The notes beneath the pieces are model-generated. The model was given only the letters and a program-made list of their open reading frames with translations. It searched no databases and was not told the DNA's origin. A DNA stretch of 64,000 nucleotides. Origin: an uncultured Planctomycetales bacterium. GTDB lineage: Bacteria > Omnitrophota > Gorgyraeia > Zapsychrales > JANLHA01. The translations under genes were made by a program, and so were the position numbers. The stretch covers positions 71,743 through 135,742 of the forward strand of contig CAYJXI010000001.1 of the NCBI GenBank assembly GCA_964374105.1. Direction: 5' to 3'. Of this stretch, positions 18,001-54,000 are shown one piece after another. Position 1 is the first letter of the stretch; every line of letters starts with the position of its first letter.

Positions 18001-21000
18001 GAAAGGAAACCGCCTTTGGCTTTCATGTACATCAATAGCAAAGGTTCTAGGCTCTCGGATGAGAATAAGCAAGAACTTGAGGAAGTGTTTAGCGGGCTGG
18101 CTGAACTTCTTAATCGTGCCGAAAAAGGAGATGCAATTGCAGTCCCGCTCGTTATGATTTTAGCCAGATTCGTTGCTTACACGGATGCTTTAAGTCTTAG
18201 TCCTCAGCCGATTTTTTATCTTAATGTGTCAGAGGAGATCAGGGAAACGCGACGAAATCCCTTTGTTGTACTTATGGCGGGAGTCACAAGTCTTGCGTTT
18301 TTATCTTCCTTGGCGCAAAGAAAATCTAAACAACTCGGCCGCGACCTGATTATTGTTGATCGCTCGATGTTTGTTGTCGAGTATCTTAAGACTGTGGTCG
18401 AAGAATTGGGCCTGAAACGGGTTAAGGTCATCCGTGCCGAAGTCGCAGATCTGAAAAAATATCCAGAATTCCAAAAGGGAAAGATCGGGGTGATCCGAAT
18501 TAAAGAACCATTGATGAGAGGGGAAGATTACGAATGGTTTAAGACCTTGACGGATATGGTGACCCCGGGCGGGAAAATTATTATCTCAAAATTCCCAGAG
18601 ATTTCGATTAGATCCCCGGAATCTTTCGATATCGACTCGATTAGTTTGAGGAAACCTACCTTTATCTTTTTGGATGCTAATATCGTAGAAGGATTATATC
18701 TAGGGTTTGTTAAGGCAGAGGAACCCCGATGGATGCTAGAGAAATATGGATACTATGATAAGGATCATCAATTTGTAGAGAAGATGAGCGGATATTATGA
18801 TGAAGAAAAGCAAACCTATGTTGAGACTTTCTTTATCTTTACCAAGCTCACCAGAAAGGCAGAAAAGAAACAAGAGCTGAGAGAGGCGCCTCCAGCGCTG
18901 GCAGTTCAAACAGCTGAGACAACTGTTCCCCAAGGGGTTGAGGAAATCCCGGCTGTTCCTACCAAGAAAGAGTCTTACGAGTTATTACAAGAAGAGAAGC
19001 AAAAGCTAGCCGAAGATATTGAAGAGATATTGAGTCAATTGATCAAGGAATATGAATCCATCCGAGATTTAACGATCATAAGAGATTTAGGTAGGAAGGA
19101 AGGTGTTGTTTGGGTGGAATTATTAACACAGTCCTTATTTAGCTTTTATCAAGATCAACGCAATATTCGTCTGGCGATTGAACGATTGATCCGAAATAAT
19201 CCTTGGCTTAAGAGTTCCTTGGAAGATACCCAAGTAATAAAAATCTTTGAAGCCCTTATTGGATTGATCCAAAAATTACAGGATAAACCCAAAGTCAATC
19301 CTTCGACTTCGTTTAGAATTGGCCCTGAGCCCCATCTCGGCGGGGTCGAATGGGTCAAAGAATTATTGGAAAAATCAGCCCGGTATTCTGCGATTGATAA
19401 AGCCTGGGAATTAAAACAATCCGGTGTAATTCCCTATGTTGTTCCGATAAGAGAATCAGTCCACACTAAGGGATATCCTTATGTTGAATTCTTGACGAAT
19501 TTAAAAGATTTCCAGGGTCTGTCCTCCCTAAAAGAAGTTGAGCGAGAGGTGATCTTCCTTGTAGATTCTCTCTTTACCGCCGCCTTCCTCAATAAAGCCA
19601 GTGAGGTTCTGGGAATATCCAATGCCAAAGCCCTTGAGGTTAAGCAAAATCTCCTTCAGTCGGAGGAGTTAAGCCAGGGGATTGGGACATTGCACTTAAA
19701 CAATCTAGATCAATTGCAGTTCATTGATCAATATCAGGAATTGGGGGAAGATTGGTATCGAAATCTCATTGAACGGGTTGTGGAAGGGGGAGAGGTCCTA
19801 TTCAGTGAACCGGTCACTCAAGAGAAATCGAGGGACATAACCTCTGGGGATATTCAAAAGAAACTTAACCCATCCATTCCCACCCCCAATGACAAAATAT
19901 TTATTGAGCTTTCTCAGAGAAGCCAAGAAAAATCCGAATGGAATTTAGAAGTCGGGTATATCAATCTTAAGGGTAAATTCATGCGCAATAAAACCGGATA
20001 TGTCATGCGAGGCTCAACGCGAATGGATACGGTCTACATCTTTGTACGGACTCTGACTCAGGAAGCAAAAGTTGCTAAAGCCAAAACCAAGATGATCACT
20101 GTAAAACTCTCCAATCGATTAAAAATATTTAATAATAATGAGGCCGTTTTAAGGGTGGGGGGGCAGACTATCAGAGATGTTACAGGAAATTTTCCCAACG
20201 AATTACTTAAGAAGATTATTGCAAATAATCAGCTTTCCGATCGCATTTTGATCTATATCAATGATACGAGGAAGGTAAGGCCAACCGAGATGAATTCAAT
20301 TCTTCAAGATCAGGATCAGTTGGTCATCATTTTATTACCGTCTGCAGATAAGAAGAAGGAAGCGGTAGAGAAATTTGAAAACCGGCCTTGGCTTCCTTTC
20401 ACGATCCAATTCTCAAAGAACTTTTTAAGGGATGTCAAACGAAGCGGGAAATTGATTGATCCCCGATTCTGGAAGTGGCTCTATAGTTTCTTAGAATTTT
20501 ATCAACAATTTTATCAAGAACCCAGAGACAAAGCCGAGAAGCATTTCTTAAGGGCCCTCAAAGGCAAAGGTACTAAGGCTGATACCCGCGTCTATCCACA
20601 TGTGTGGCATGACGATAATTATCGGCTTTACTTTGACTTCTTGTTTAAGGTAGAGAATAAGATCAGTGTCATCGATGGAATCAGGCTCTTTGCCTTCCGG
20701 CTTAAAGACTTCAGCGAAGACAATCCGGTATTTTACAAGGCCTTGGAGAGCTATTCAGCCGACAGTGAAGTCATAACCAGGATCATTGATGTCGAGAATC
20801 TGCTTAACCGGCTTTATAACAATAAGAATATTCAGTTGATTGCTGACTTAAGTCAGGAAATGAATTTGGCGAGTTTAGAGCAGGAGTTCTTCACCCCCGT
20901 TAAGAAGGCTTCCTCCTTAAATGATTTATCTGCGGCCTTTGATCAACTGATTATCGAACGCACCAGCGACTATGATGTCCCCACCTTCCAAGGAGCAACG

Positions 21001-27000: not shown

Positions 27001-30000
27001 CTTTCTGGCTTGGTAGAAAAAGAAGGATATCTTGACATTTATATTGAAGAATTGAAAAGAGCTAATATTTATCTCTACGACAGTTCTCTTGTCTCGGCAG
27101 GGTTTAGTTCCAGCATAAAACAGAAAGGGCTTAAACAGATTGAGAAACTTTGGGAAGGAAGGGTCGTGGAGATTGTTAAATACTTAAGATCGAACAGCCA
27201 GCAGTTTGGCAAAACCGCTTCCCAGAATTTTATCCGAGGATATTTAGGTGCCTACCGATATATTGAGAAACGTTATCCGGAATTTTATCACTTAGAAAAG
27301 TGGATCCGACTTGTCAAAGGGAACCGAAACCTCGTTGAATGGAGAATGTACAAGAGTCGGGTGATACTGACGATCGATGCGACTTTATTACAAACCCGAC
27401 CACTTTTGGAATTGGAAGTGGCTGAGGTCTTGCGTAAGGTAGCCAGCCGTGCGGTGTATGGCAAAGAATTTATCCCGGTCGTTGAGGCCATTGAAGAAGT
27501 TGAAACGGATCTTGAAAAGGTTGATTACTTCCGCAATATGCCGATTGAGGATCAAGCCGAGGTCTTGAGTGTACTTATGAATAAACGCAATGCCATGGAT
27601 ATTGCTGGGTTCCATGAAGTCTTAATCCGCAGCTATGTCCGTTCATCGGTGGATAAGCAAAAATTAGATTCGATTATCGATCTGTTAAGACAAAATTACC
27701 ACCATGTCATCAAGGAAGATCAGATTAGAAAATTATTGATCCTTATGACTCAACCTCAGGATGCCATTGAGGAGATTTATCAATACGGAAAGAAAGCAGG
27801 GGTTTACCGTGAATCCATTCATAGAGAATACGTTGTTGGGTTTGCACAAGAATTACGAAATCTTGGGTTTGGCGGTGTTGAGCGCCTGCCAGAGGAAATC
27901 GGGAATCTCCGGCACGCGATTATCCTGATGGTTAATTGGCTTAAACCAAGAGTCTTGACCAGAATGCAAGATCATAACCTTGCCCCCTTGCTTGTAGCTA
28001 TCAATGGAACTGCGGCCAGCGGCAAAACCTTTTTCAGTAAGGAAATCAAACGCAAACTCCTCGCTCAAGGGTTAGGTTTGCGGGAAGAAGATATTGAGAT
28101 TATTGAATTGGACGATTTCCTCTTACCCAAAGAGCAAAGAAAATCCGGAGATGTTTTAGATGCCTATGAACTGAGGAGATTTTACGAAACGATAAGATCT
28201 CTAGCCAGAGGCAAGTCTGTGTCAATCCCGCAATTCGATCAAGGGACTCGCAAGAGAAAGACAACCCCCGATGGGAAGGAATTGTTGCACGTTATTCCAT
28301 CGGGCAAGAAGGTTGTTATTGTGGAAGGGATTCTTATCTTATTGAACCGAGCCGTGAATAGGCGTTTCGATCTAAAAGTTTTCTTAGATGCTGATCCCGA
28401 TGAAAGGGTTCGCCGAGAACTTTATCGCAAATGGAATGAAGGCCGTTACGCCACGATCACCGATTGGGCTATGGCCGAACGTGCCCTGCAGAAGGAGCTC
28501 AACGAAAATCAACCTTATATTTACACCCTTAAAGAAGAGGCGGACATTTATGTCTTAAACAATGAATTGTGGTTCCACAAGGGTATTCAGAATGAGCCAG
28601 AAAAACTTGTAAAGGATCTTGAGGAATTGGTTCAAGAATTCAAATCATACATAGAACGCAGCAATGGCCGGGTGGTTTGGAGGGATTGGGAATTTATTCA
28701 AGGTATCGGTGTATACGAATTCAATGAGAGTATCGCCACACCTCTCTTACAACAATTGGTTTATAATCCAAACAAAGAGGTCAGAAGAGCCATTTACCTA
28801 TTTCTCTTGGATTATTACCGAAGAGATAGACTAGAGGAAGTTGGAACGATTATAACAAAGATCTTCCCCGAGGCCATCAGTATTATTGCTCAAGATGTGG
28901 TCAATGACTACAAGGCCCATATGGAAGAATCTGTTGTTAAAGCCCCCATTTTAGTGGGGGTGTCTGGGTTCTCCTATAGCGGGTATCTGACCTTTGCCTT
29001 AGGACTTAAGGACGAATTGGTTAAAAAGCATAAATTCAGTCCCGAAGCAATCGCTATTATGGAGCAGAAGGATTTTACTATTTCTAAGGGTGAACGCAAG
29101 CGAGGCAGTGTCCTTTATAAATTCAGATTACATGAATTCATTCGAGCAGCCCTTAGCCTCCTTTCCCGTAAGAGCAAACTTGTTTACAGGCCGTTTGATC
29201 TTAATAAGGGAAGACTAATTCCCAAGGCTTGGACTCGGTCAAGGATTACGATTGATCCCTATAAAGTCAAAATTGTGATTGTGGTGGGGAACTTGGCCCT
29301 TCACGATGAACGCTTAAGAAAGAATTATGTGGCGCGTGTTTACGTTGAGGCACCTCGCTATGAACGGTTAAGAAGAATTCTTCTGATGCATCAAAAGGGA
29401 GAGATTTACAGTTATATCAAAGATCCTCGGGACATGATCACCAAATTCAAGGCCTGGGAGAGGACCGAGGAATTGGATTATATTGTTAAACAAAAGGTTT
29501 ATGCCGAGCTTATTGCCGATAATACCGAAGGGGGCTTAAAAGAAGATCAAGTGAAAGGACCTTTTAGGTTTAAAGACACCAATGAGCTTGTTGCTTATTT
29601 ACAAGAGATCAAATTACCTCTTCGAGTTTATCGAAATGAACAAGGCGGGGTAACCGAGATTGAAATTGTGGGGGTCACCCCTGTCTTAGAAGAGGCTTCG
29701 GCTCGAATTCTCATTGAAGAATTGATGAATAATCCCAACGCTGATATTTGGAAGCACATTACCTCGGTCTTTGATCAAGTGGATGTCCGACCCCACAAGA
29801 AAGGAGCTAAACGCACCCCGCCCCAGGATGCATCCGCAAAAGGTAAGAGCCATAAGCAGATTATTAGAGAAGTCAACGAGCAAGGTGGGATTAAGGCGAT
29901 TATCCGGAATTTCGGCGGAGAAATCAGCCGTAGTGAAGTGATGAGGACTTATGGGATCAGCCCAAAGATGATTGATCGACTGGCCGAAAATGTTCGATTC

Positions 30001-33000
30001 ATCCGCGGCCCGCCTGAGATTGGAGTTGCCAATTATCTGGATGTTGAAGAAGGTATTATTTACATTCTTATCCCACCCGATCCCTCCCGTCAGAATGTCC
30101 GCCACGAAATCCGCGCGGTTAGCTATAGATGGATGCCGCACTTTGTGAATGTCATTTTGGATAAAATCCCAAGTTATTCCCACAAATGGATCAATGAGCT
30201 TAAGCTCATATACTTTAGTTTAAGGTTGGGTGTTTCACCAACGAGGTTAAAGAGAGCGGAAATCCTTGCTCTACAGCTTGCCGATCGTGCTGCCGAAAAA
30301 ATGCAGGAGATTAAACAAAAGGCAAACTGGGTTGATGGGGTGATGGTGCAGGCTGAGTTAAAAGCCGATGGAAGCTTTGTGACCCCTGCCGATGTTGAGA
30401 TTCAAAATAAAATTGTTTTACCCAGTATTCTCAGAGAATTCCCAACCCATTATGTCTTAGGAGAGGAAGAGATCTTCGATCAAAAATTGAAAACTCAAAA
30501 TGACGCCAATGCCAAATCCGATTGGGTATGGGTGGTGGATCCGTTGGATGGGACCAAGGCTTATCGAGGCGGGCATAAAGGCTATGCCTTCTCGTTAGCT
30601 CTCCTTTATAGAGGAAGGCCAATGATTGCCGTGACCTATGCCCCGGAAATGGAACTGGGCAATGAAATGGGAATCAAGATGCAGGGAAGTCTCTGGGCTG
30701 GGGCAGTTGTAAACGGACGTAGATTGAAGATGAACCGGATTTTGGATCAATCCCCTGTATGGCAGGTGATCGCATTCTATTACGATGTGGAATTGAAACA
30801 TGATCGTTATCGATTTGGCTGGCAGAAACATTATGGAAAAGAAAATGTCTTAATCGAGACAGAAGAAACAAATGCCTCAGTTACCAACAGCATGAGAGTG
30901 CTGTTGGAAGAAGTAGCCATGTATTCTACCTCGGATGCCCATATCTGGGATTGGGCGGCGATTGGGGCGATTGCCCAGTGGGTGCAGGCAAGTGTCCATC
31001 GTTATGATGGAAGAAGTGCCTTCCCGATCAGGAAAGAAGAAATCGAAAAGGCCAAAGAAATTTTAGAACCATTTATCTTAACCCGCGGTGGTGAGCATGA
31101 AGAAACAGCCCTTAGAACTGTGCGTGAAGATCAAAATAAAGAATTGCGGGTAGCCGTGATCGGCGCCTCGGGATATTTGGGTAAGAAGATCTACTCGATC
31201 TTTAAGAATGAGAAGATGCAGGTTATCGGAACTTATCTTAATAAACCCAAGGAAGGATTGCTTCTCTTGGATGTCACTGAGGAAGAGGCCATTAAACGAT
31301 TTATCGAAACCCACAAGGTCAATGTCATCATCTATGCGGCTGGTGAGGCCAGCCCAGAAAGAGCCGAAAAAGATCCTGCCCGCGCGGAAACTTTAAATGC
31401 GGGAGTGATTGATACTTTCGCGAAACATTTCCACGGCCACTTTATCTATGTCTCAAGTGATTATGTCTTTGATGGAACAAAACCGCCTTACCTTGCCAAT
31501 GCAAAGCGCAGTCCGTTGAACGCTTACGGCCGATCCAAGATGCACGGCGAACAAAAGGTGTTAGAAGAACACATCGATCAATTTGAGAAAGTAACCGTGG
31601 TGCGCTTAGGGGTGCTTTACGGTTTCAATGACCAGGACGACAAGAAACATTATGTTAAAGAAATTGTAGAAAAATTGGATCAAGGAGAAACACTTATCAA
31701 GACGGATCACCGGCAAGTCAGGCATCCAACCTTCCTCGATGATGTGGCCTTGCACTTATTGGATGTGGTTAAGACCGGCCGCACGGGGATGACTCACGTC
31801 AACGGCCTAGAGGATACAACCAAGTACCAGTGGACTCAAGTCATTGCCGAAGTTTACCAAGAAACATTTGGCCCGATTCCAGGTCTTAAGATTGAACCTG
31901 TGGAAACGGTTGATGTCACCACCAAACCCAAAGACGCCAAACTTGTATCCCTGACTTCGATTAAGATCACATCACTTAAAGAAGGCATTCGAAAGATTAT
32001 CCGTCAATTATCGAATCGACAGACCAAGAAGGAAGATAGACAATCACAATCGCCTCAGAACCCCATGACAGCGTCCCGAATCGATTTATCTGATTTCGTC
32101 AGACAATTGGAGCACCTACTAAAACATTTTAAGGTTGACTTCAAGGAAAAGATCAAGATCGATACGATTGTTCTGGACCTTGACCGAACTGCCACCGAGC
32201 ATCCACAGGTGGAACTCAAAGGCTTAAATCTTGAAGAGATTATCCGAGCCCTTCTGGCTGACAAAAGGGTGATTATTATCAGCGGCAGTGCTTATCATAA
32301 AAAATATCAGACTCGTTACGGAGAATTTGACTATACCAAGAATTCTATTCAGCGCAAGGTGACGGATGTACTCAAGCGCGATCCGCGTATTCAAAAAAAT
32401 ATCCATAAGTTAAAGAATCTGATCATCAAATATATTTCTGGTAAGGGAACCATTACCTTCAACAAGGAAGGGGAAGAAATTGATCAGGTGAATCAGGAGT
32501 ATATCATCTCTGAAGATATTGAGAAGGCTATGGCCAAAGCGTTAGTAGGGGCGTTCTATGCAGTTTATAAGGGATATCAATTTGAGGAATTCTTAAAAGA
32601 CTCTTTGTATGAGCAGATTCAATCGTTTGACAAGAATGACTCAAAGTACATAGCTAAATTAGAAGAACTGGCTAAGACCTCAACGGGATTGGAGGGTATC
32701 CATTTCGGGCTCTGGGGAAGCGAGACAGTCTTGGATTATGCCGATAATCGTTCACCGGATGGGACGCTAGTGATTGAATTTGCGGTAAGGTTGTTAGCCA
32801 GAGACATCGGTGAGGAAAATGTAAGAGGGAAATACTTCCTCTCTGGCGGTGGGAATTATGCCAAGTTTGCCTTAATTGATAAAAAAGATGTGATTGCCAA
32901 CGAACTTAAAAGTATTGATTCTGCCGGTGTCGTCCTTGCCTTGGGTGATTCGAGTGTCGATACCTTCCTGTTTCTTAAGCCAACAGAATATCTCTATGTG

Positions 33001-36000
33001 CCTATCTATTTAGGCCGCGGCAAAGATATCCAAAGTTATCCCAATGTTTTAATAGTTAAAAGAACCAATGGCGAGGATAACGTCCAATCGGAAGGATTTG
33101 GTCCGGTTGTTGAGATGTTTTCGGATGCTGAGGAAAGAAACTTAAGCTTTGAGGAATTGCTGAATCTCAATGAGAAGGGTGTCCAAGGAGATATCCTTAA
33201 GGATGCCTCGGCTGAAGGCAGGTCCCATCGAGATGACGCAAAAATAATAGGTAAAGAGGTCAAACGATTTGATTATGATGAGTTGGCATTGATTGCCGCT
33301 TGGGTGAGGAAAGACGTGTTTGACATGATCCGTAAAGCTAAGGCTGGTCATTTCGGCGCCTCAATGAGTGTGGCGGATATTCTGGTGACGCTGTACTTTG
33401 GCGGGCATTTGCGAATTGACGATTGGGAAAACCGCGACCGGTTGATTCTCTCCGAAGGCCATGCGGTGGCTACCCTGCATTCAATTCTTTCGATGCTTGG
33501 GTTCTTCAGCCGTGATGAGCTGGCTACGTTCCGGCAGGAGGGTTCGATCTTAAACGCCCATCCTACCGCTTACATGACTCCCGGCATTGATGCCTCAACG
33601 GGTTCGCTGGGGCAAGGGTTGGGACGTGGCATCGGCATGGCGTTGGCGGACAAGATGGATCAGAAATCTCGTCATACTTTTGTCATTCTGGGTGATGGCG
33701 AGGCCCAAGAAGGGCAGGTCAGTGAGTCTATGGCGATCGCACCAATGTTGGAATTGGATCATCTCATTGTGATTATGGACCGAAACAAGATCCAGCTCAG
33801 TACCGCTACTGAGAACGTAAACAATCAGATGAGCCAGGAGGCAGTCTGGAGGCTCAACGGCTGGAATGTGATCACCATAAACGGACATGATTTTGGGCAA
33901 CTTAACGAAGCCCTCAAGGTTGCCAAGACTCATCGCGGCAGGCCGACCTTAATCATCGCGGATACGATTATGGGCAGAGGCTTATCGTTTATGGAGAAAG
34001 ATTCTCAAGCGGGCAGCGCCCAGTGGCATCACGGACAGCCTAGTCAAGAACAATTTGAAATCGGTGAGAAGGAAATCAGAGAAAGGGTATTGGCTCTAGA
34101 AGAAAAAGCCAAGTTAAACTTTGAATTATTCTTGGCGAAGGTTCATAAGAAACGCTACGTGGAAGTAAGGAGACCTCAACCCGAGGTGCTTCCTGTATTC
34201 TTAGAGAGAGAAAGGAGTTTCTTTAATAATGCCGAGGAGTTCCCGAAGAATGTGACTCGTGCGTTTATTCTCTCATTAATTGAGTTCGCCAAAACTGATA
34301 AACGGATTGTCTTTTTGACCGCCGACCTAACCGGCTCTCATTCCTTGGGACCGAGTATATTTAAAGAGGCATTCCCCGATCGATATTTCGATGTTGGTAT
34401 CCGTGAACAATCCATGGCCAATATCGCGGCCGGTTTGGCTGATTCGGGCAAACGCCCGGTTGTGGTGGTCTATGATGCGATGGTCAATCTCATGGCCGAA
34501 CAAATTCGATTTATTGCTCAGGATAGTTTGCCGGTCATCATCTGGGGTGCGGTTGGTGGAGTGGGTTCAGCCATGGGTGGCCGTAGCCATCAATCTTCCG
34601 CCGAGTCAGCCCTCTACAAATACATCCCCGCCATGCATTATTTTGAACCGGCCGATGCCAACGAAACCTATGAACTTCTTAAAACCGCCCTTCATCTGGA
34701 TGGCCCAAGTTACTTCAGGACTTCTCGACTAGGAATTCCTTTATTAGATCGCGGACAGAATCCTCAGCCAGAGAAAGGGGCCTATGTTATCCGAGACAGT
34801 GAAACAAGGCCCGATGGGATCATCGTTGCCACCGGTTCCATTATGAGGAATGTGCTTAAGGTTTATGAGGAGTTGAGGAAACAAGGAATCAATGTGAGGG
34901 TGATTAATATTACACGGTTAGAAAAAGAATTATTATTGAAATATTTAAAACCGCTCTTGATTGATGAGGTCCCGATCGTAACGGTTTATGATGCGCAAAA
35001 GATGATTTTAGCCGATCTCGTCAGCGGCGTCATCACCTTAAGTCCAGCCACCCGAAATGATCTCTTGCCATTAGGAATAACCGGCTGGGGCGCGGCCAAT
35101 GCCGATAGAGATTTTGATGCAACCTTGAAGGACAGCGGATTAGATGAGGAGAGCCTTTTAAAACAAATCAGTGGATTCTTAAAGAAAGAAGGACAAGGGC
35201 AAGGCGGTGACAGTCCCATTAAAGAGAGAGATCGGCAAAATCCAAAATCAACATTGTCTGCCTTTGAACCCTTGACCTTGCTTGTGGTTAGTATTGCGAT
35301 TGCAGCTGTGGTATTGGGGCTTAGGAAAGAAAGGAAACGATTCGATCTGAATATTAGTAGTGATCAAGAAGGTGGAATGAAAACAAAAGGCGGCAGCCAC
35401 CTTGTGGTTCATCCTGGAATGCGTATAGTGCCGTCTTTCATAAGGATAATCAATCCTCGCAGTTCCGCTGATGGGAGAATGTCAAGGAGTCCCACAAAGG
35501 CACCGAGTATGACATCTTTATTCGGTGGATGGATATCAACAACGATGATATTAAATTCGGAAGGCGGGAACAAAAGGACATTAAAGAAATCTTTATCAAG
35601 GGAAATGAGGATACGGTCTTCGCGTTTGGCAAGCAGAGCATTACTCATGTCCGATGAAGAACGAGGGACCCCTACTACATCGTGGCCTAAAGCAGTTAAG
35701 GTTCTCATGAGTTTGATAGGAACATCTTCATCAATTAAAAATTTCATCTTTGAGGTTATTTCGATTTATGCAAATCGAGAAACTCTTGATTCTTGGCCAC
35801 TTGGGCAGCAAAATGCAAAGTGGCCTTTATATGATCAAGAGTCAGTTCGGGGTAGTAGTCTTGTCCAATTATCTCTTGGGGAGAAACACCGCCTTCCAAG
35901 AGTTCAAGGACAAGATAGATGGGGATCCGGGTTCCCTGGAAGCACACTTTTCCATGGCAAATTTGAGGATCAACGCTTAAATACTTTTGAAGATTCATCT

Positions 36001-39000
36001 TTTTCTCCGCAATTTTTTATTCTGCTATCTTCTTTTGTTTCAAGTCTATCATCGGCTTTAAATGTTGTCAACCCTTCGATTTCACTCCCCGCCGATTCGT
36101 CCCGCAGAAGTGCTGCGGGCCGGGCTGGGGAGCGGCGCCTCTTCTTTAAAGGGTTGGGCGCCATCGAATGGGTCAACTGGAGTGAGGAAGGAAAAGAAGG
36201 TGATAGTCACCTTCAAGATGGACATCGGCAAGATCCAAAATCAACATTGTCTGCCTTTGACCCATGGACCTTGTTTATGATTGGTGCTGCGGTGGGGATG
36301 GCTGTGATCGTTGGCGTATGGCAGGTAAGGAAATGGAGAAGGTCCTGGACTTCTCAAAAGCGCATTGAATTGATAGAAGAGTTTATCAAGCGATATCCGG
36401 ATAAAAATATTTTAGGTGTGGTGATTTTTGGAAGTGTGGCCTCTGGGAAGGCTACTTTAAAGAGCGACTTAGATTTTATGCTCATCGTGCAAAAAGGCGA
36501 GTCACTGCTAGCCTTTAACAATCAAGAATCTGAGTTTATTGATCAGTTAGGTCAACAATTTGATTTTATTGAACATCCTTCGGTCGGCAAGCTGATGCTC
36601 GAATCTTCCTTAGATACTAACCCCTATCAGGCCTTTGATGCGCAAATTGCTTTATTTTTTGTTCCGCCGCATCTGGTAGGAATCGAGGTTTTTGGCGCCA
36701 GACAACCGGGCCATCCTTTCATTGATCAATGGATTGTGGTAGCCAGGACCCCTGAATTAGAACAAAATTTGACGGCATTGATTAAAGAACGAATGAAAAT
36801 AGTGGTGAGTCGAACTGAAAAGAAAGAAGAAGACAGCCACCGCCTCGCTAGAGCCGAGGGCGAGGAAGACCAACTCTTTGGACTTAACCTAAGTGAAGAG
36901 AACCAGACTAAACTGGCAGAATTGTTAGAACACGCCTTGGAGAGCAAAAATAAGAGAGAAAAAGAGAAAGCCATAAGGCTCTTAAAGAAATTTTTATGGC
37001 GACAAGCCTTAAAAGAGGAAGATGAAAGGACCCTAACTCTCCTTAAACGGCAACCCAAAGACGTATTTGTTAATCAGCATGAACAGGTGCTGGCGGTTGA
37101 AAACGGTCAGTTGCTCTTAAAGAATCGTAAGGAAACACTTAAGTACAGTCAGATATTGCTTGATGTCACCAAGAAGGCCGATCGGGCCTATCATCGAAGC
37201 TTAAGGTCAGTCTTGATAAGAGGCATAAGGAAAATGATAAGTTCGGTTGAAGCCACAGCCACGACGAATGCTTTCCCAAGAACTGTTACGATACATTGGA
37301 CCAAGGATATGATAATGCTGCCTGGCTTTGATCTTGTTGAGCGAGCTTATAAACAGAGTATCAAAGCTGCCGCAGAAGTGCACTTTGAACATAATTTAAG
37401 ACAGATCCAGAAATTGCTTAAAGGCCGAGGCAGAGGTGTCCTGGCGATGGCCCTTCGAGAAGGCTCCCCGGCCAGCGAATCACCAAAGCCGGGGCGGGCA
37501 GGACAAGCAGAGGAGAATAATGGCGAACCTGCTCAAGAAGAAAAGATTAAAGAAGAGATTAGGGATATTATCTTGGAAAAGATCGGCAAGAGTCCATTTA
37601 AGAAATTTAGTGAACGAGCCCGTCAAAAGATTTTGACCGCCCTGGTTGAATCTATCTGGCGCGTATTTTCAAAAGAGTTGGGGGAAAGAAAGGAAGTGAG
37701 CCAGGCGCTTGAAAGGGCTGTTGGTCAGGGATTGAGGGGAGCGGTAACGATAGAGAGAAATCAGTTGAACGCCTTAGTCAGTAAATTGGTGAAATTGGAG
37801 GATAGAATTAACAAAACCAGTAGAAAAGAAGAATGGGCAAACCAAGTCGCAATTTCCTTGGATTGGTTTACTCATGTCATGCAAGAGTACGTGGATAAGA
37901 TTCCGGAATTTAGCAATCTGTGGGAGACCCTAAATGCCCTGATCAAGATTCTGGTACGCGATTCCAACAAATATGTACGGGAAGCGGAAGATGATGAGGC
38001 CAAAAAGGAATACCATATCCGCAGGTTGCGTGTTGAGATCGCTACCGTGAGTTTGCGGATTTATCACGATGTGCCTTGGATGCAAGGTCCTCCAGACAGG
38101 GTGAAGGCGACGGTGGAAAAATTCAATAAATACATACTGAATTATTATCCCTGGACCGAGTATGAGCAGAGCCAGGAATATCTTACTTCCATTAAACACA
38201 TGATGGAAGGGTTAGTGTATGTTTATCCGGCTTGGAGAGAGCGGCTGGACATGTCCAAATGGGAGGAAATTAAGGTCAAAGTACACCTTCCTGTTTCCTT
38301 GCGAAAGGCGGTTAAGGGCAAGAAAGAATTTATTGAAATCAGCGGAGCCATCGATGTGAAAGGGGTCTTTGAAAAATTATTTGACGAAGCACCGGCTTTG
38401 TATGGCGAGTTATTTAAGCGGGGTACTCGACGCAAATTTATCCATATCTTTAAGAACAAAGAAGAGTTACCGGAAAAATTCGAGCAGTACAGTGCCTTTG
38501 GAATCGAGGTGAATGATGAGATTTATATCTATACAGGTGGAGCCGGCCCGGTGAGACCAGCAACCAACGAAAGTCAAAACAGAGGAGGAAACCAAGGTAA
38601 CGCTGAGCTTAAGAAGGGACATCCAGGAAATAAGAAAGGACCCAAAGATGCCTCCGCTCAAGGGAAAGATCGAAAGACGATTATCAAAGAAGTAAGCGAG
38701 TTGGGTGGGATTAAGGCGATTATCCAAAACTTCGGCAGCTTGATTATTCATGAAGACGTGATGAGGACTTATGGCATCAGCCAAGAAATCACGGATCAAT
38801 TAGCCGACAATGTTTTCTTCGTCCGCGGGCCGCCATCAATTGGGGTGGCCAATCATATCGAAGGGAAAACGATCTACATTATTATTCCTGTCAGCAAGGG
38901 GACTGTCCCCTCTGGGGACAGTCCCCTTGCTGCCCTTGCTGCAAGCCGTCAAGACATCCGTCATGAGATCCGCGCGGTGATTTATCCTTGGTTACCTCAT

Positions 39001-42000
39001 CAAATCAATTTCCTCATTGATCAGATTCAATTTTTAATCTCAAAGATAATAAGACCGCTCAAAGGAACATTCAACCTCTTCCCACCGTGGCGGGACTGGT
39101 TGAGTGAAATTTCCCATCATTTAAGAGCGGTCTTGAATTTAAAGCAAGGGTTGCTGCCTGTCTCGTCGTTGTTTAGGGCGGGATCCATTTTCCAAACGAT
39201 GAGGCAGAAAGTGTTTGCCATCCAACCGTGGCTGGTGGTGAGCAAATTGCCTTCCTGGGCAGCAGCCCTTGGCAATAATCAAGAACACGCCATGTTTATG
39301 AACCGAGGCGGCCGCATGCCGCTCTTGCAGGAATTCTACAACCGACGCGAATCCGCGGTGATTCAGGCACCAAAGATCCATTGGTTGCCGTATCGCTTAA
39401 GGGTTCTATTAGGGTATATCATTGGTCAGGCGCTAACGCCGATGCGGTATGAATCCGGGGTGATCGCCGGTATCATTCTCATCTTCGGCATCATTTATCC
39501 TTTAAGTATGCCGCATGTCTTTGATTTCACAACCGTGGTTTCGATGTCTATGCCATTCTGGATAACTTTGGCGGTAGGCAAAATCCTTTGGCATCTTTTC
39601 CATATGATTACTCCAGAACAATTGCAAGGAGAATTGAATGAGGACGATACCGTTTGGATTAAAATCGGCAAGGCCTTTTATTTATTGCATACCAAAGAGA
39701 CTTGGGAAGCTTGGAAGAAAGTTATCAGCGGCGATTTACTTCTGATCACCGGCTTACAATTCCTCATGCTGGGATTATTTAAATGGTTTTTGGATCCAAC
39801 CGATGTGTACTTCTTCATCAGTCTTATTTTAGGTCTGTTGGTGCCGCATTTTGTCGTGGATCTTATTGTAACACCTTTGACCGGTTGGCTGATTCTCTTC
39901 AGAAAGGTTGAGGAGATCTCATCTGAAGAGGAAAAAGAAAAATTCTATCAGCAGATGAGTCGATACTTCAAAAGAATTGATCAGCACAGGTTAGTGAGGT
40001 TGTTAAGATCTAAAGACCAAAAGGTTAATCGAACCGCCATGAGGGTCATGGAATATATGGTTGGGGAGGTTCTTTGGCCATTCAGTCAAATCTTGGCGAA
40101 TTGGATAGAGGAACATCCCGATTTAAGAATTGAATTTGATCATCGAGGGATAATTGAATTCCAGGGAGTGGATTTGAATTTGGCCAATCTGGATATTATT
40201 TCGTTAATCAAGGTCTTAAGAGGATATGGATACGATTTAATTGGCAAAGTCACCGTGACTGGATATGAAATTGAGGAGGCCATCAAGTCGGATAAAAAGG
40301 CTCTGCAGGCCGTGGTTGAGAAAATTTTGAAACATATCGGTATTTTAACAAAGGGTGATTCACATAAACAAACACATCACAAAGAAGGAGATGTTAAAGA
40401 GCATCCCATCCGTCCATCCGCCATGTACCAGGCTGCCAAAGATTATGCTTATCGCTTAAAATACCGGGGATATGATGAGCCATACATCCCCGCCGGATTT
40501 GAGAAGTTGGGTGATATCCTCTTAAGGGTTGCCGTCTACGAATATTTAAAGAAGTCGGGTAAGATCAATGGACCGCCGGATTTAAGTCAGAAGTCAGATG
40601 TCATAAGTCAAAGGTCAACTGCGCGTGAGCAAGTTGAGCAGGTTATTGAGGACTACAAGCGCAGTGAGCCCGACAAACTCAAAGAATTCAAAGAAACCGA
40701 GATTACAACTTCGCGGACCTGGGACATCGGTAGAAACCGCCAGATCAGAAATATCTTAAAGAAACTCGATTACCCGCAGCATCTCATTGACTGGACTATT
40801 CAACATATTGATCTTCATGAAAAATCACCCACAGAATCCAAGGCCATTTCTCGACAAGCCAGGCAATTGAGACTCGAGTACCGCGCTACTTTAGGTGACT
40901 TTATCATCGCCTTAACCGACTGGAATTTTAGAATCTTTGCCTTAAGCTACGAACGAAAGTTAAACGCCAATCCACAACCTATCCTAGAAAAACTTGAACA
41001 ACTGCTCGTTGAGATCAAAGCTGTTCTACCGAGATTTAGAGATTTACAAATCCCGGTGGATCTTATTGAGCGAGTTGAGGCCATCTTTGAATTGTTAGAG
41101 AAGACCAAGGAAGGGGGTGTGCGTACACCCAACGAACCGGCGGCGAATATGATCCTCACCGCCACAATAGAAAAAGCCACGCAACAGAAAGAATCAATTC
41201 TTAGAGCCCGTTTGCGTCAGGAGAAGAATATAGCGCGGGTGAAGAAAGATGGAAAATATTTCGTGCGCGGCCAGCGCTATGAAACGATTGCCAAGGGATT
41301 AAGTCCGGTCTTAACGTATGGGAATCTTCTCTATTCAAGCCTCTTTGATGCCTTTGGGGCAGTAGATCATATGATTGATACCGAGCTTGATGAAGTCCTC
41401 TGGATTAAGGATTTCATTGGCCTATTGAATGAATTTAAACGAATGACTGTCGATGATAAACAACGGATTGAACAAATGATCGAGGAACGTCTTAGCAAAT
41501 TAAGCAGGGCCCTCGTTGAGGAAAAGAAACTTGCCCGTATCGTTCTTGAGCATACAAAGACCCTCCTCAATTTGGATGTCAACCTCTTAAAACAAATCAT
41601 CGGGCTCTTTAATGTCACGATTCGTCTATTGCAATTGAGGATCGAAGAAAGCCAGGCGATAGTAAGAGGCTTAAAAAATGCCCGCTTGAATCGATTAAGA
41701 AAAGAGGTCAACGAAAGAAATGCCGCCCTTAAGACAAGGGCCTTTAAGATCCTTCATTCTCTTCAATACGGCCATTATCGGTTGCCAAAGAAGATCCTTG
41801 AAGAAGATCTCCTCAATCCCAAACACGAGGCTTATCTCGATCCTAACGATCCGGAATTTACCCCGTTGAGCTCTGTCTTAAAGCATAAGATTTTACCCCT
41901 CTTAAGGAAAATCTATAAAACGAAGGAAGATCGCCAAACTATTCAAGAGGTCTTAGAATTCTTCAAGAACAAACTTCTTGTTTCCATGATCATCAACCGC

Positions 42001-45000: not shown

Positions 45001-48000
45001 ACAACCGGTTTCACGGCGGCGGGTCTACGAGCAGCAGCTTATGAAGCGGGAGCTCAACAAGTGTTTGCTTTGGCTTATGGAAAGTCCTTAAAGGGCAGGG
45101 CTGACCCTGAACTGGTTGGGCCGGAAATTTCTATGGAAATGACAACAGCTGAGATTCCTGAATTGTTGGGAACCCCATATGATAACGAGACCATCCAGCT
45201 TTTTGTGACAGGCGGGAGCTTTGTGAATTGTGTGTCCCGTACCATATCTCATGCGACACTTCATTCACTGCTTACTCTTAATAAGCCTCTTCGCGTGATC
45301 GTCTTTGAACCAGCTGTCTCTCCTTGGGGCAAACACGATTACGATGACTACATAAGCGCCTTTGTTCGAATAAATTCGATTCAATTTGCTGGCCTAATGC
45401 CATTAGATACAAAAGTAACATTAGACGGACATGTTATGGTTGATCAAAGACCGGTTGTTTACCCAGGTTATTCCGTACTTATTGAGATTTACACAACCAA
45501 AAAGCAATTCAAGGATAAATACCTTTATGAGAGCCGTGAACTTGATCTAAAAGGAGTTCAGAAAAAAAGATTCATCGATGTTCTTACCGAAAAACTAAAT
45601 TTAAAACAAGATGTAGCGCAACAAATACTGGAGCAGTTATTAGAGAAGAGTTCATTTCTGGCAGGTTGGGAGGGACAAGGTGAAGTCTTGTTCTTTGTCA
45701 TCGGCCTTTTAAAGATTTTGACCCTACCAGGTCTTGCCCAAAGCTTACAGGGGAACGAGGAGTTGACTAAAGAATTGGTAGATTCTCTTGGGTACTCTGT
45801 CAATCACCTTTTTAAAGAGAGGCTAGTCATTGCACGAAGAGCATTTATTTATACCGTGGAATTGTTAATGAGTTCTGCCGTGAGTAGGCTTCTAAAAGAT
45901 AAGAATGACGTAGAAGGCGTTATGGAAAGTATTCAATTTGTGTCTGGAAGAGCCAAAAATTTTCAAGAAAGGATTGTTGTTATTAATCGAGTTTTGAATT
46001 CGGGAAAACTAGCTCAAGAAATTACAGATTTAGATAATCTCCGTAGATATATAAAAGAAGTTTCTGAAGAGGTTTTAAAGAAGGCTCAAGTTGATCATCG
46101 TGGTTTTCTGGATGTTGAAAAGACGACCAGGACGATTCTAGAAGAGCTTAGTGGAAACAATTTTGGATTTCAAGAAGAGGGTGATTCTTACCGCAACATC
46201 ACCTCCTCCGCCTTTAAGGCCTATTTAGATCAGCATCGAGCAGAATTATTAAAGCAATTAGGCGAAGAAGGTGTGAGAAGATTAGAACGATATTTTGAAG
46301 CTTTAAGGATTCATGAAGAATTGACCAGCGCTAAAGGTTTGATTCGCGGGCAGCCTGCCCTGAGCGGAGTCGAAGGGCCATTCGAGGGAGCGGAAGTTGC
46401 CTCATTCGTCGCACCGAATCAGACCGGCCTCAATAAAGCCTTACGCGCCTCACTCGATCAACCTTGGGAATTATCCCCCGAAGCCATTCAAGTTTTGATC
46501 GACCAAGGATTTACTAAAGAAGAGATTACTGAATACCTCGCCTTCCTCAAAGAACATGAAGGGGAGCATCAAAGACTTTATAAGGAAAATCCTAACCATT
46601 CCGAAGACAGAATACTTGGAATTCAAGTAGACAACATAAGCCATGTGTCCTCACGTACGATAAAAACGCAAGCGGTTAGTTTGGGCGATAACCAAACTTC
46701 CACGCAATTTGTCAGCCGGAATTTCATTCAGAATATTTTTGATAATTTTGTACATCTTTTCTTTGGAGAGAAGATGGGTGCGCAAAACGATGATGCCGCA
46801 AGACTTTTGGGGAGGATAATGCAGGATGTTGCTAAAGTCGAGATCACGGGTAATCAAGACACGGCCTTCACGACGGGCAATGGCGAATATTTCCTCATCT
46901 TTAAGGGGGGTCTTGGAAATATCACGGACATCGACCACATCATAATCTTGGCTTTGAAGTTCATAAAGGAAAGAACGAGGGATATCCGCATCCAAAATGA
47001 GTTTGATCATTATCGAGTTGAAGATTTAAGGGGAATTTCTTCTTCCTTAGCCAGAAGGGCAGCAAACAGAAGCGATGCCTTGATGTCTTTATCGGACAGG
47101 GGAGGATATTCGGCTTTGATTTCTTCGGGGGTCATACCTAAAGAGAGAGCTTCTAAGACCACATATACCGGGGTGCGTGTTCCTTTAATACAAGGTTTAC
47201 CATGGTGGATATTAGGAGAAGTGACAATTCGTTCAAGCAGACTATTGATTTTAATCATATCAATACCTCCAACAGTTAAATTCAGTATAGTTACCTCTCG
47301 AGATAATGTCAACGAGAAAGTCCGCAACATCACCGCTGAGGCGCTGGAGAAATTTATCAATGCTAGAAATAACAGTAGCGAGCCGTTAACTGAAACCGTC
47401 ACCCAGCGGCTGCAGATGTTCGTGGCGATGTTGAGAATGCTGCAGGCAGAAACCGGTGGTGAACCTGTTGCGTACTACAATACTGCGACCGACCAAATCA
47501 TCTGGAATCTCACCGAAGAACAAATCCGCACCATCCTCAGTACCAAGAATAAAGAAGAAAACATCACCGTACTCATTGATTTCATTCGTAAACACGAAAA
47601 GAGACATCAACAACTATCTCGAAAGAAGATTAAACATTCCGAAGATAATATCTTTGAATATCAAATTAAAAAATGGAAAGCATCGGCTCCCAATAAGAAA
47701 TCAATCCGCGAGTTGTTGTTTAGCAAGCGACAGGGCGCTCCTCAGGGATTGCCAAAGGTTTTTGCCTTTAGATTCGAAAGGAATCAAAGGGTTAGGAGAA
47801 TTTCTGTTGCCAAAGACTTGCAACAAAGATTTTTCTCAGAAGCGTTTTTGGTAGAGACAGATGAACTTGGCGCCACTGTTATTGGAGATATTGAGCAGTG
47901 GGGTGGATTTAGAGAAGATCGGTGGAGACATAGTCATCTCATGGAGTTAGAGGATGAGGATATTGTCGAGATGGCCTGCAGTGATTGTGGCGCCATGATT

Positions 48001-51000: not shown

Positions 51001-54000
51001 TACAAAAGAAATCCCGCTCACAGCGAAGAGGATGTCTTCCAAAAGCAAATTAAATTGTGGAAAGAAAAAGTTGTTACTCCCACTTTATCCATCATCGATT
51101 TGGTCGGGGCAGATCCTGTTCCAGAAACAATCGAGCAGACCTTTAATTTAGAAGAGACAGAGAAGCTTTTTGCGGCCTTGGATGAAGAGCGAAAGATTGA
51201 TTTACGGAAAAGTAAACCTCACATTCTATTGATTGGAGCAGGCGCTGAAGATGTAAGATTCATCGCCCAACGTTATCCGAAGGGTCAGATGGCCGTGGTC
51301 AGTTTAGGGATAGGACATCTTGTGAAGATCAAAGAGACCTTTGAACAAGATGCCCACGTCAATAGACGGCTCAAACTTTTTTATGCCGATGCCGCCCATT
51401 TGAACCGCAAAAAGTTCCCCAATCAATCATTTGATTTTATTTATATCAAGGGAATTGATCCGACCGCCTTCGGTGATTTGAAAGAAGGTGACACAATTGT
51501 TCAAGGAATTGCCGAGGTGGCCATGCGCCTCATAGGGCCTGGCGGCATCATCTATCATCAGTATTTCCCGCATTTCCGGGTTCGGATATTCTATTCGGCT
51601 TCTGCACATTACATCACGGGACAGGATTTGAGAGAAATTGAAATCCCATCAAAATGGGAATCTCAATGGGTCGTATTTTTAAGAAAGGCACAACAACGAC
51701 CTCGGCAAGAAAAGCGCCATATTGTCGATGCCCATGAGCCTCAAACAACGCCTAAACTGACTCTCGAAGAAGAACTTAAGCTTTTGAGACGTATTGTTTA
51801 TGAAAGCCGGGCGTATATTTTTGAGTTGTTCCGTTTCCATAAGTGGCCGGTTCCGGAACCATTAGCGCAGGTAACATTAGGCGGGTGTTGTCAGGATGCC
51901 GCTCAGGATATTCTGTCCGTTGTTGAACTGCTAAAGAAAGAAGACAGGAGAGGTCTCTCAGCAAAAATATACCAAGCTCATACCTTGTTCTCAAAAGGAG
52001 TTCGAACAACAAATATTCTTGCCCATGTCTTTGCCGTTGTTTCTTTTGAAGATTCCAAACAGCATTATCTGGTTGATACGACCTTTAATCAGCACATGGT
52101 CGATAATTGGGAGGAGCTTGGCTTACGCGATACCTTAGAGATTGCTGCTGATTTGCGGGGTGTGGATTTTGTTTTTGAACTTATTCACGATGGCTATAGT
52201 CCGCTAACCGATGAAAATTCCAACGTCTATGGCAATATCCTGCGAAGATCTGATTTACAAGAATTTTCAACCAAAGACATTGTTGAGGGGCCAATGGCCC
52301 CCTTGACAGAACTTGACGTTGAACGGGAAGGGTTTTATGTCGGTGATGAGTCAGTCAAAGAGAAGATCGATAGACAAATCAGAAAATTCTTAATCTCGCT
52401 TGCCCCAAGATTTAAACGGCACGGGTTTGATGTAGAAAGAAAAGGTGACAGTCACCATCAAAAGGGAGAGGCACCCAAGGATGCCCGCCAAGCCTTTGGC
52501 TGGAAACCCTACCGCGCCCAACTCAAATCCGAATTCGGCCAAGAAGGAATCCGTCACCTCAAACGCGAAGACCGCTGGATCGTGTTTGCGATTGTGTTGT
52601 ATTGGTTTATCCGTGCGGTCACGCTGGGCTTCTGGGCACCACCAGTGCCTACGGGCTTTAAGTTCTTCCAAATCGCCTCACCGACCGCCGAACATCCGGC
52701 CATGCGGTTTATTTCTGCCAAGTATCAGCAATCCATCCGCACACATGAACAAGATCATCCAGAAGAAGAATTCGAAGCCTACCGAAATGCATTGAAGGAA
52801 CATCAATCTTCACTTCGAATTCGATATTTATCACGATCGACAATAACAAGAGATTTAGACAGCTCAGAGGCAGGAACTTCTTTGAGGACTCTCACTAGGA
52901 CGGTATGGACAGCCTCCATGGCTCCCAATGTATCCAAACGAGGTCGCAGGAGAATAACTCCACAATGGGATTTGGTAGGATATAAATTGAGATTGCCAAA
53001 ATCAAGATCGGTAGTAATGATGGTTGCCTTCTCTTTATTGGCAATATTGATTACTGTGCCGTTTGTTGCGGAAGCCTTCCCCAACTCTTGGATTGTCACA
53101 ACGGAAAATCCACTTTGGCGCAGTATCTTCGCGGTTTGGACGAGTACGCATTCATCAATCAATAACTTCATTTTAGCGGGACTTCAGATTTTCGAAGAAA
53201 TGTACTTCTTCATTGCGGACCAATTGGTTGGCATACGCAATGCAGGCGTAAATATCTTCCGGGGAGAGTTGGGGAAAATAATCTTCGCCAGTGATTTCTT
53301 GGGGAGAGAGACCGGCGCTCAGCAAATCCAGAATTTGCCAGACCATAATGCGATGGCCCTTTATGCATGGCTTGCCGTGGCATATCTTTGGATTTACCGA
53401 AATGCGTTTAAGAAGCTTTTGGGTATCATTCAATTTAATAGTCGGTTTAATCATTTTTTGAATCTCCAAAATAACAATAGAACTGTAGCATCTCCAAAAG
53501 GTCATGTCAAGGAGGCAGAAAGGAAACAATGGTTGGAGGAAATTCATGAAATCCAGCGCCGCGAAGCCTTTGGCTGGGAAGCTTACCGCGCCCAACTCAA
53601 ATCCGAATTCGGCCAAGAAGGAATCCGTCACCTCAAACGCGAAGACCGCTGGATTGTGTTTGCGATTGTGATGTACTGGCTAATTCATGCTATGACGCTC
53701 GGGTTCTGGGGGCCGCCAGCGAAGGTGACAGTCACCAAAGGTGACAGTCACCTTCGCCAATTTGCCCGATGGCAAATTGCCTCACCAGAAGCCGAACATC
53801 CGGCTTTGACGGCGAAGATTTTCGGATTGATTCCCTTAATGCCTGCTAAATACAGACAATCCATCAGACAACACGAGTTTTATCATATTTACCGAACCGA
53901 TGAATATGGTGTTTATCGAGATCAGTTGATTTGGGTACTGGATGTTTTAAGTCCGTCTCACCAATTGGCGCAAAAGATCAATGAAAGTTTAAACGGGCAA

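Follow-up and report, generated by a model that had tools for sequence, protein, structure and literature searches.

Modular enzymes in a row within a giant open reading frame of an uncultured Omnitrophota bacterium

A stretch of 64,000 nucleotides (nt) from an uncultured bacterium of the Omnitrophota lineage (assembly GCA_964374105.1, contig CAYJXI010000001.1, positions 71,743 to 135,742 of the forward strand; hereafter the window) is covered by one giant open reading frame (ORF), and this report concerns a block of enzyme modules within it at 27985-35190, which spans the first residue of a kinase (amino acid (aa) 9329) to the end of a transketolase (aa 11730), all in frame +1. On balance the block is probably a beads-on-a-string array of independently folding and mostly active modules, which on sequence grounds would have arisen by in-frame capture of whole genes and been shuffled among giant proteins. 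A preliminary description of the window had placed these enzymes in a row, in one frame and within about 7 kb, and that arrangement was confirmed, the frame being free of stop codons and the Pfam hits all lying in it. The same description had proposed, as one of two readings beside enzymes released by processing, a metabolic megacomplex with channelling, which was not supported: the reactions are not consecutive, the order of the domains is not conserved, and relatives match single modules.

Frame +1 is stop-free across the entire window (1-63999, + strand; 21,333 codons), and the ORF, open at both window ends, extends over more than 64 kb and more than 21,333 aa; each of the remaining five frames contains 896-1648 stops (stop density 4-8%). 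Its length exceeds the 10,000 aa in a single ORF by which the multi-enzyme class of giant proteins is recognised. At least 14 distinct Pfam families tile the ORF, none dominant by copy number, and they include SNF2, a PrmA-like methyltransferase, PRK, Inositol_P, RmlD, transketolase, a nucleotidyltransferase, PseudoU synthase, ChaN and DHQS; along it, enzyme modules are interspersed with repeated spacer modules and a sparse scatter of hydrophobic helices. No Shine-Dalgarno sequence with an ATG was found at the start of any module, so internal translation starts for the modules were rejected and the modules are taken to be made as part of the long chain.

Enzyme modules of the block and their relatives

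The block closes with a complete transketolase-like module (33247..35232, +), which has the PP, Pyr and C domains of the short or split-chain type. It matched Transketolase_N over aa 11100-11335 (E 3e-49), Transket_pyr over aa 11418-11577 (E 6e-29) and Transketolase_C over aa 11593-11700 (E 4e-11); its best match in the PDB is the N-terminal subunit of a split-chain transketolase (6yak, E 4e-56), and it scored 358 bits against NCBIfam NF004559 (cut-off 488). The complete split-type transketolase with N and C parts of the preliminary description is thereby upheld. Residues for thiamine diphosphate (ThDP) binding and catalysis are present (H11117, H11154, H11187, G11231-D-G, E11237, N11262, H11343, E11469, H11530 in SHQ, and R11573), and include the GDG...N motif for ThDP and Mg, the cofactor-activating Glu and the catalytic His. 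Across 115 short transketolases, 82 columns are conserved to at least 93%, and the module retains 65 of them; most of the 17 deviations are common to a free-standing sister protein of 675 aa (P0002). The closest relative is a 65%-identical module (P0001) on an ENA contig (locus L001), where it follows a HATPase_c domain within a run of same-strand ORFs interrupted by frame changes, a pattern suggestive of a giant gene in fragments; L001 has only this module in common with the window, the flanks being unrelated. P0002, at locus L002, is 56-57% identical, and has its own start, its own stop and a divergent upstream gene, and its homology to the window module is nearly end to end. After these two, the next match falls to 35% identity, and a search of GTDB genomes with a clade-specific alignment gave only relatives of 42% identity or less from unrelated phyla, none of them Omnitrophota. 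The three proteins share a longer interdomain linker, and where the canonical form is HxG...DG.(S/T)HQ the window module reads GAVGGVGSAMGGRSHQ, the same replacement being present in P0001 and P0002. Nonsynonymous divergence (dN) from the two closest relatives is 0.29 and 0.37 with synonymous sites (dS) saturated, which indicates purifying selection on the transketolase. Homology with both loci begins at aa 11083-11100, and directly upstream of that point lies a truncated copy, KDASAEGRSHRDDAKIIGKEV, of the DASA motif described below (33196..33246, +; bare motif at 33202). As a side observation, four Cys positions of free-standing P0002 carry other residues in the giant's transketolase.

The block opens with a kinase of the Udk/PRK family (kinase module 1, 27985..28575, +), which matched the Pfam PRK/uridine kinase family over aa 9332-9480 (E 9e-12) and has uridine kinases as its best solved relatives (PDB 3w8r, E 2e-13). 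Its Walker A motif, GTAASGKT at aa 9336, is intact, and LDDF, FD, VEG, RRELYR and DADPDERVRR motifs are present; against the NCBIfam udk model it scored 77 bits (cut-off 180). It is followed by a helical C-terminal extension (28576..28941, +), which co-occurs with the kinase in P0121, a protein that matches kinase and extension together (query 1-281, 37% identity), and which was duplicated along with the kinase. The second copy, kinase module 2 with its extension (28942..29760, +), is a degenerate paralogue detected by self-BLAST (aa 9328-9598 against aa 9648-9920, 28% identity, E 3e-11); it gave no Pfam hit and reached 30 bits against udk (E 4e-7; cut-off 180). Its P-loop, SGFSYSGYLT, has no lysine, so the module is by its motifs evidently a dead copy, and VEG is changed to VVGN. 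Both the uridine-kinase-like P-loop kinase and its degenerate second copy had been predicted, and both were recovered.

Between the kinases and the transketolase lie two further enzyme modules. The inositol monophosphatase (IMPase)/CysQ-like phosphatase (30223..31116, +) matched Pfam Inositol_P over aa 10091-10351 (E 2e-25) and has the metal-site motifs EE (10155-6), DPLDGT (10180) and WD (10316, in WDWAA), in agreement with its first assignment; of the 25 columns conserved to 80% or more among eight homologues it has lost none, and it is 38% identical to a domain within the 6,092-aa protein P0122. It falls under every NCBIfam equivalog cut-off (CysQ, 50 against 229 bits), and it is therefore assigned to no sub-family. 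The extended short-chain dehydrogenase/reductase (SDR) of RmlD/MAT2B-like type (31147..31944, +) matched Pfam RmlD_sub_bind over aa 10383-10648 (E 1e-41), carries GASGYLG at 10388 (GxxGxxG), S10485 and Y10509xxxK10513, and keeps the conserved residue at each of the 20 columns that reach 90% conservation or more among 146 homologues. The RmlD-like reductase named at the outset holds at the level of this Pfam family; the module is closer to MAT2B, its best PDB match (106 bits, against 63 bits for solved RmlD), and lies under the rmlD equivalog cut-off (TIGR01214, 132 against 224 bits).

The HAD-IIB phosphatase of the preliminary description was not substantiated. The candidate HAD-IIB-like region (32158..33000, +; aa ~10720-11000) is recognised by motifs only, DLDRT at 10726, IISGS at 10759, KK at 10961-2 and GDSSVD at 10982, in an order and spacing plausible for HAD-IIB, and short motifs alone are not decisive. 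At E<5 the only Pfam match was to the HAD-family profile PGP_phosphatase (E 0.07), NCBIfam gave no match, a word-indexed search of 5.8 billion proteins returned no homologue, no PDB sequence matched at E<10, and the single-sequence AlphaFold model had a pLDDT of 33 and was unusable.

Across the block, catalytic and cofactor residues are preserved in the His/Glu set of the transketolase, the YxxxK of the SDR, the metal site of the IMPase-like phosphatase and the Walker A motif of kinase module 1, and they are lost in the P-loop of kinase module 2; the substrate-binding residues equivalent to yeast transketolase His469 and Asp477 are replaced. To call these modules housekeeping enzymes, as had been done, overstates the case: since all of the domains lie under their equivalog cut-offs, they are, as judged from profile scores, divergent family members and not standard housekeeping copies.

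Relatives were found module by module. The whole 2,402-aa block gave no match among 5.8 billion proteins, in a search whose list of word candidates was probably saturated, and no close relative of the whole block was found in GTDB representative genomes or JGI metagenome contigs. An exhaustive HMMER search with aa 9329-10528 matched each module separately, one stretch per protein, and the very large relatives (1,400-7,248 aa) match one module apiece. The RmlD-like domain is 40-55% identical to domains inside many proteins of 1,400-5,400 aa, where it adjoins APH, PfkB, ROK, GNAT or GFO domains. Members of these module families are found in many giants at 40-65% identity, and where relatives of the RmlD-like and DASA modules carry names, these are Candidatus Omnitrophota, apart from one labelled Elusimicrobiota. 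Comparison of these proteins thus points to modules that are common property of giant proteins and whose order is not conserved.

The long frame, its antisense cassettes and its spacers

Selection on the long frame is most apparent where the frame runs across genes on the opposite strand. Just past the enzyme block, inside the giant ORF, lies a toxin-antitoxin (TA) operon (TA operon 1, 35998..35409, -) composed of a DUF433 antitoxin (35998..35756, 80 aa; Pfam E 8e-19) and a DUF5615 PIN-like toxin (35747..35409, E 8e-14), and two more DUF433/DUF5615 operons were identified by Pfam further downstream (TA operon 2, 47255..46651, -; TA operon 3, 53454..52803, -). The wider minus-strand intervals listed for cassettes 2 and 3 are 46651-47402 and 52803-53631. 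The genes are intact, with full profile coverage at E 8e-14 to 1e-23, and the three pairs are mutually divergent, antitoxins being ~46% and toxins ~30% identical. The giant frame reads through the operons as filler rich in S, R and G, and is stop-free across all three with no Cys in 616 codons. Among 66 ordinary homologous TA loci, one of 198 antisense frames was stop-free over 570 nt, and the antisense frames average 2.8% Cys; by chance, the absence of stops over the cassettes would be expected at ~1 in 10 million and that of Cys at 3 in 100 million. Protein-level selection thus acts on the long frame even where TA genes lie opposite, and the cassettes provide internal evidence that the whole frame is translated.

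Direct repeats flank two of the three cassettes, one of 104 bp around cassette 1 (80% identity) and one of 161 bp. The 104-bp repeat corresponds to two copies (aa 11748-11780 and 12079-12115) of a transmembrane (TM) helix module, composed of [ND]PKSTLSAF[ED]P.TL, a hydrophobic helix and an RK-rich tail, which stands on either side of cassette 1 at 35242-35340 and 36235-36345; an analogous 52-bp repeat surrounds the TA cassette of a metagenomic locus, L117. After cassette 1 follows a Pol-beta-type nucleotidyltransferase in sense orientation (36373-36576, aa ~12125-12192), whose best match is the MntA antitoxin (E 8e-7, below the cut-off), and a TA-type domain may thus also have been fused in sense.

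In JGI metagenomes, the antisense arrangement was found again among the 80 closest DUF433 loci. L092, 20,240 nt long, is open over its whole length antisense to two TA pairs (10004-11435), and the frame opposite the TA genes is open over 10,182 nt in L117 (TA at 10001-10575), 5,836 nt in L146 (5073-5647) and 4,582 nt in L084 (2683-3295), while in the short contigs L159 and L107 it is open throughout. The identical relative antisense frame is open in each recurring locus, and the host ORFs carry HATPase_c, signal-peptidase-II and metallo-beta-lactamase domains. No TA cassettes were found in L001 or L083, and when 22 further long off-frame ORFs of the window were compared with Pfam none matched, in the same screen that surfaced five of the six TA genes. 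The arrangement is mentioned neither in West-Roberts 2023 (10.1101/2023.11.21.568195) nor in Nielsen & Lui 2026 (10.64898/2026.06.07.730766). If confirmed, TA operons lying backwards in giant genes would be a new overlapping-gene arrangement and might stabilise very long, repetitive genes. The cassettes are the real surprise beside the block, and together with the purge of stops and Cys they deserve follow-up.

The purge of Cys extends over the whole frame, in which 11 of 21,333 residues (0.05%) are Cys compared with 2-4% in the window's other frames, and it is uniform along it. Those that remain are almost all in CxxC or CC pairs (aa 7549/7552, 15993/15996, 16725/16728, 17296/17297 and 19463/19466), and several related large proteins are likewise poor in Cys (0-0.2%).

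About 10 helices were credible in a hydropathy scan, among them those at aa 6087, 11754 and 12091, some of the peaks being antisense-coded filler. The block sits in a TM-free stretch of ~5,650 aa between the helices at aa 6087, the previous strong one, and aa 11754; the helix that closes the stretch (35260..35322, +) has a Kyte-Doolittle value of 2.34 and one charged residue.

Spacer modules stand between the enzymes. The DASA module within the block (29797..30204, +) has a second copy at 38611-39063, the two being 50% identical, and is made up of KDASA.GK, a helix-turn-helix-like stretch, RFIRGPPEIGVANY and VRHEI.AV; over aa 9925-10051 it is ~46% identical to the Candidatus Omnitrophota proteins P0126, P0236 and P0278. 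Its leading motif, KDASA.G[KR], occurs three times in 21,333 aa, two of them within the block, including one directly before the transketolase, and no other recurring junction motif was found in the block. The block also has no protease domain and no HExxH module, the nearest such site being HELGH at aa 8953. HExxH occurs 16 times in the giant ORF against 1.0 expected, mostly in two families of repeated mini-modules at aa 15361-17020 and 17480-20470 (nt ~46081-61410), with single sites at aa 8953, 14259, 18436 and 21197. Family 1 has seven copies of ~110 aa with invariant H, E, H, E and Y in HExxHxxGxxE...Y, and its copies flank the PseudoU synthase, ChaN and DHQS domains; family 2 has four or five copies of ~130 aa with HExxH...HSE. 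An alignment-based AlphaFold model of family 1 (pLDDT 77) is all-helical and matched no PDB fold at E<1 and no peptidase fold, and the idea that the mini-module is a zincin protease was dropped on the strength of this confident model.

Other parts of the frame were recorded in passing. The window opens with four to five copies of a ~680-aa unit without a Pfam match (49-9600; 26-39% identity between copies), partial copies of which lie at ~17760-18900 and ~19245-20160 (aa 5920-6300 and 6415-6720). Near the far end, at 62200-63330, a DHQS domain scored 381 bits against a cut-off of 333 (NCBIfam NF004852), and is thus an equivalog-grade AroB fused in the giant ORF which, unlike every domain of the enzyme block, exceeds its equivalog cut-off. 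At ~58306-58404 (aa 19436-19468) the sequence SMSRREMLKVSLTGLGAAALASCLGCAL resembles an internal twin-arginine signal with a lipobox; it lies ~30 aa past an HExxH module and directly ahead of the ChaN (haem-uptake lipoprotein) domain, a placement that looks as though a whole gene, signal peptide included, had been captured in frame.

Proposed capture, possible cleavage and probable location of the chain

The array described above would have been built by joining whole enzyme genes end to end into one very long frame, with spacer modules between them. The captured genes would be a Udk-like kinase, later duplicated and in one copy now inactive, an IMPase-like phosphatase, a MAT2B/RmlD-like NAD(P)-binding SDR, possibly a HAD phosphatase, and a short-type transketolase. 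The giant ORF would be translated as a single, membrane-associated chain in which each module folds independently and most keep working active sites, and the stretch that holds the block would most likely face the cytoplasm, the most economical side because the modules depend on ATP, NAD(P)H, ThDP or Mg2+. Enzymes of the transketolase, IMPase and uridine kinase types are as a rule obligate oligomers, so their activity would need two giant chains to pair side by side and in register, or modules to be released later. The modules are a mixed set of nucleotide and sugar-phosphate enzymes shuffled between giants and not a fixed pathway; we know of no pathway that links all activities of the block, and a transketolase with a free-standing sister, together with modules shuffled between giants, argues against designed pathway channelling. 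A sedoheptulose-7-phosphate route, with the transketolase feeding heptose or C7-cyclitol enzymes (HAD, SDR, nucleotidyltransferase and DHQS-like), was considered and rejected because the DHQS is an equivalog-grade AroB at a distance of 9,000 aa and because relatives do not keep the domain order.

Several observations weigh against mostly active modules on the cytoplasmic side. One kinase copy is dead and the HAD-like region is an orphan; none of the block domains reaches its NCBIfam equivalog cut-off; and the whole transketolase clade has other residues in place of the substrate-binding yeast His469 and Asp477. The Cys content of 0.05% fits an exported protein better than a cytoplasmic one, the positive-inside counts at the helices flanking the block are ambiguous as to membrane side, and similar enzyme domains have been predicted to be extracellular (West-Roberts 2023, 10.1101/2023.11.21.568195).

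That the chain is a polyprotein, cut at the module junctions so that kinase, phosphatase, SDR and transketolase act as free oligomeric enzymes and the giant ORF serves the expression or delivery of many proteins, is a doubtful alternative, although the modules are the size of whole genes and the transketolase, IMPase and Udk families are normally homo-oligomers. Cleavage would suit the excess of HExxH sites in mini-modules with invariant residues and the signal-like sequence with Tat and lipobox features ahead of ChaN, and it was also proposed by West-Roberts 2023 (10.1101/2023.11.21.568195). Protein-specific pentapeptides that recur within the large relatives P0188, P0147 and P0212 (RSELR eight times, GARLA six times and KDGG eight times, against at most 0.13 expected from shuffles) may be junction or cleavage motifs. 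Their spacing is ~500-1,000 aa, and KDGG resembles a double-glycine peptidase site. The block itself is without an HExxH module or protease domain, KDASA.G[KR] is found just three times in 21,333 aa, the HExxH model is all-helical without a PDB peptidase fold, and cleavage has been demonstrated for no such protein. Whether the product is one chain or is cut is a question for which the giant ORF now offers sequence handles, in the form of candidate junction motifs and metal-site mini-modules. Accretion of cargo, by which the ORF would tolerate any in-frame insertion and the block would be mostly passenger DNA with little selected function within the giant protein, is improbable. It would account for three antisense TA operons read through as filler, direct repeats flanking cassettes, a dead kinase copy and an orphan HAD-like stretch, module neighbours that vary between giants, and a ChaN domain that still has its signal-peptide-like N-terminus; against it stand the strong purifying selection on the transketolase, SDR and IMPase modules in which every conserved residue is kept, and module families shared by many giants at 40-65% identity, as would be expected if function had been retained.

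Near-absence of Cys is typical of proteins that cross membranes unfolded, and in the window even the antisense-coded filler has been purged of it, the few residues left being mostly in CxxC. On this basis an exported effector array could be envisaged, the chain or its pieces being exported from the cell or delivered into a host or prey cell, where the enzymes would rewire nucleotide and sugar-phosphate pools, in keeping with reports that Omnitrophota are host-dependent or predatory and that giant-ORF peptides rise in attached cells (PMC10066038), and that glycolytic domains are predicted to be extracellular (West-Roberts, 10.1101/2023.11.21.568195). We regard this as very unlikely, as the window showed neither a secretion signal nor a domain of a secretion system, the cofactors required are absent outside cells, the chain also carries an SNF2 helicase and RNA-modifying domains, indicative of the cytoplasm, and low Cys is also found in relatives of ordinary size context (for example 0.02% in P0188). 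Hardly any weight is left for a chimeric assembly or mis-called gene in which the enzymes are really separate genes. Such an artefact might be suspected from L001, which is split into many same-strand ORFs by frame changes, and from the fact that assembly quality can alter gene calls, but it is refuted by 21,333 consecutive sense codons against a stop density of 4-8% elsewhere, which is beyond chance, and it is opposed by the lack of start signals at module boundaries and by the uniform avoidance of Cys along the frame.

A broader proposal, which we put forward tentatively, is that the giant ORF is a platform for in-frame gene accretion and that the block is cargo, with sense genes captured between spacer modules and TA operons captured antisense. 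The sole universal selection would then be 'no stop codon, no cysteine'; the antisense cassettes would be of a lineage adapted to dual coding, perhaps as addiction modules that guard a repeat-rich gene from recombinational deletion; and the enzymes would be active on a membrane-tethered string.

Comparison with known systems

The block is a further example of the multi-enzyme giant proteins already published for the Omnitrophota. West-Roberts 2023 (10.1101/2023.11.21.568195) described 'Archaeovorins' carrying glycolytic enzyme, HAD, NUDIX and kinase domains, predicted their glycolytic domains to be extracellular, and proposed cleavage while stating that the cleavage points are unknown. Nielsen & Lui 2026 (10.64898/2026.06.07.730766) defined the class 'multi-enzyme metabolic cluster' and reported TM helices or signal peptides in 94% of long proteins, and the class has about one TM helix per several hundred residues according to both papers. 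Seymour et al. 2023 (PMC10066038) note that giant-ORF peptides have been detected in V. archaeovorus, and such peptides are reported to rise in attached cells. The window resembles these giants in an ORF of more than 10,000 aa, many enzyme Pfam families on one chain, apparently sparse TM helices, a content of methyltransferase, HAD, kinase and sugar-phosphate enzyme domains, and domain types that are common while their sequence is poorly conserved. It differs from them as published in its set of two Udk-like kinases, an IMPase-like phosphatase, a MAT2B/RmlD-like SDR and a transketolase, which is named in the text of neither paper; nor does either giant-protein paper mention HExxH mini-modules or a purge of Cys.

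Among other fused or multi-domain systems, AROM/Aro1, CAD and the type I fatty acid and polyketide synthases likewise place several complete enzymes on one polypeptide, and AroB itself occurs later in the same ORF; unlike those systems, in which consecutive pathway steps follow a conserved order, the reactions of the block are unrelated and their order is not conserved. Viral and other polyproteins share with the window many modules of whole-protein size in one ORF without internal starts, but in the window no protease was identified and no cleavage-site consensus was found at block junctions. The SDR module has the extended signature of MAT2B and RmlD (GxxGxxG, Ser and YxxxK); unlike RmlD, it has no Rml pathway partners, and its family recurs in giants beside unrelated kinases. 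The transketolase module has the three domains, ThDP motif, Glu and His of the split-chain and short transketolases (Carboxydothermus hydrogenoformans, PDB 6YAK/6YAJ, and ~656-aa 'transketolase C-terminal domain-containing' proteins), and differs from the split-chain enzymes in being a single fused chain embedded in a giant ORF. To the published giants the block adds a well-resolved example, in which domain boundaries and residue-level integrity are defined for each module.

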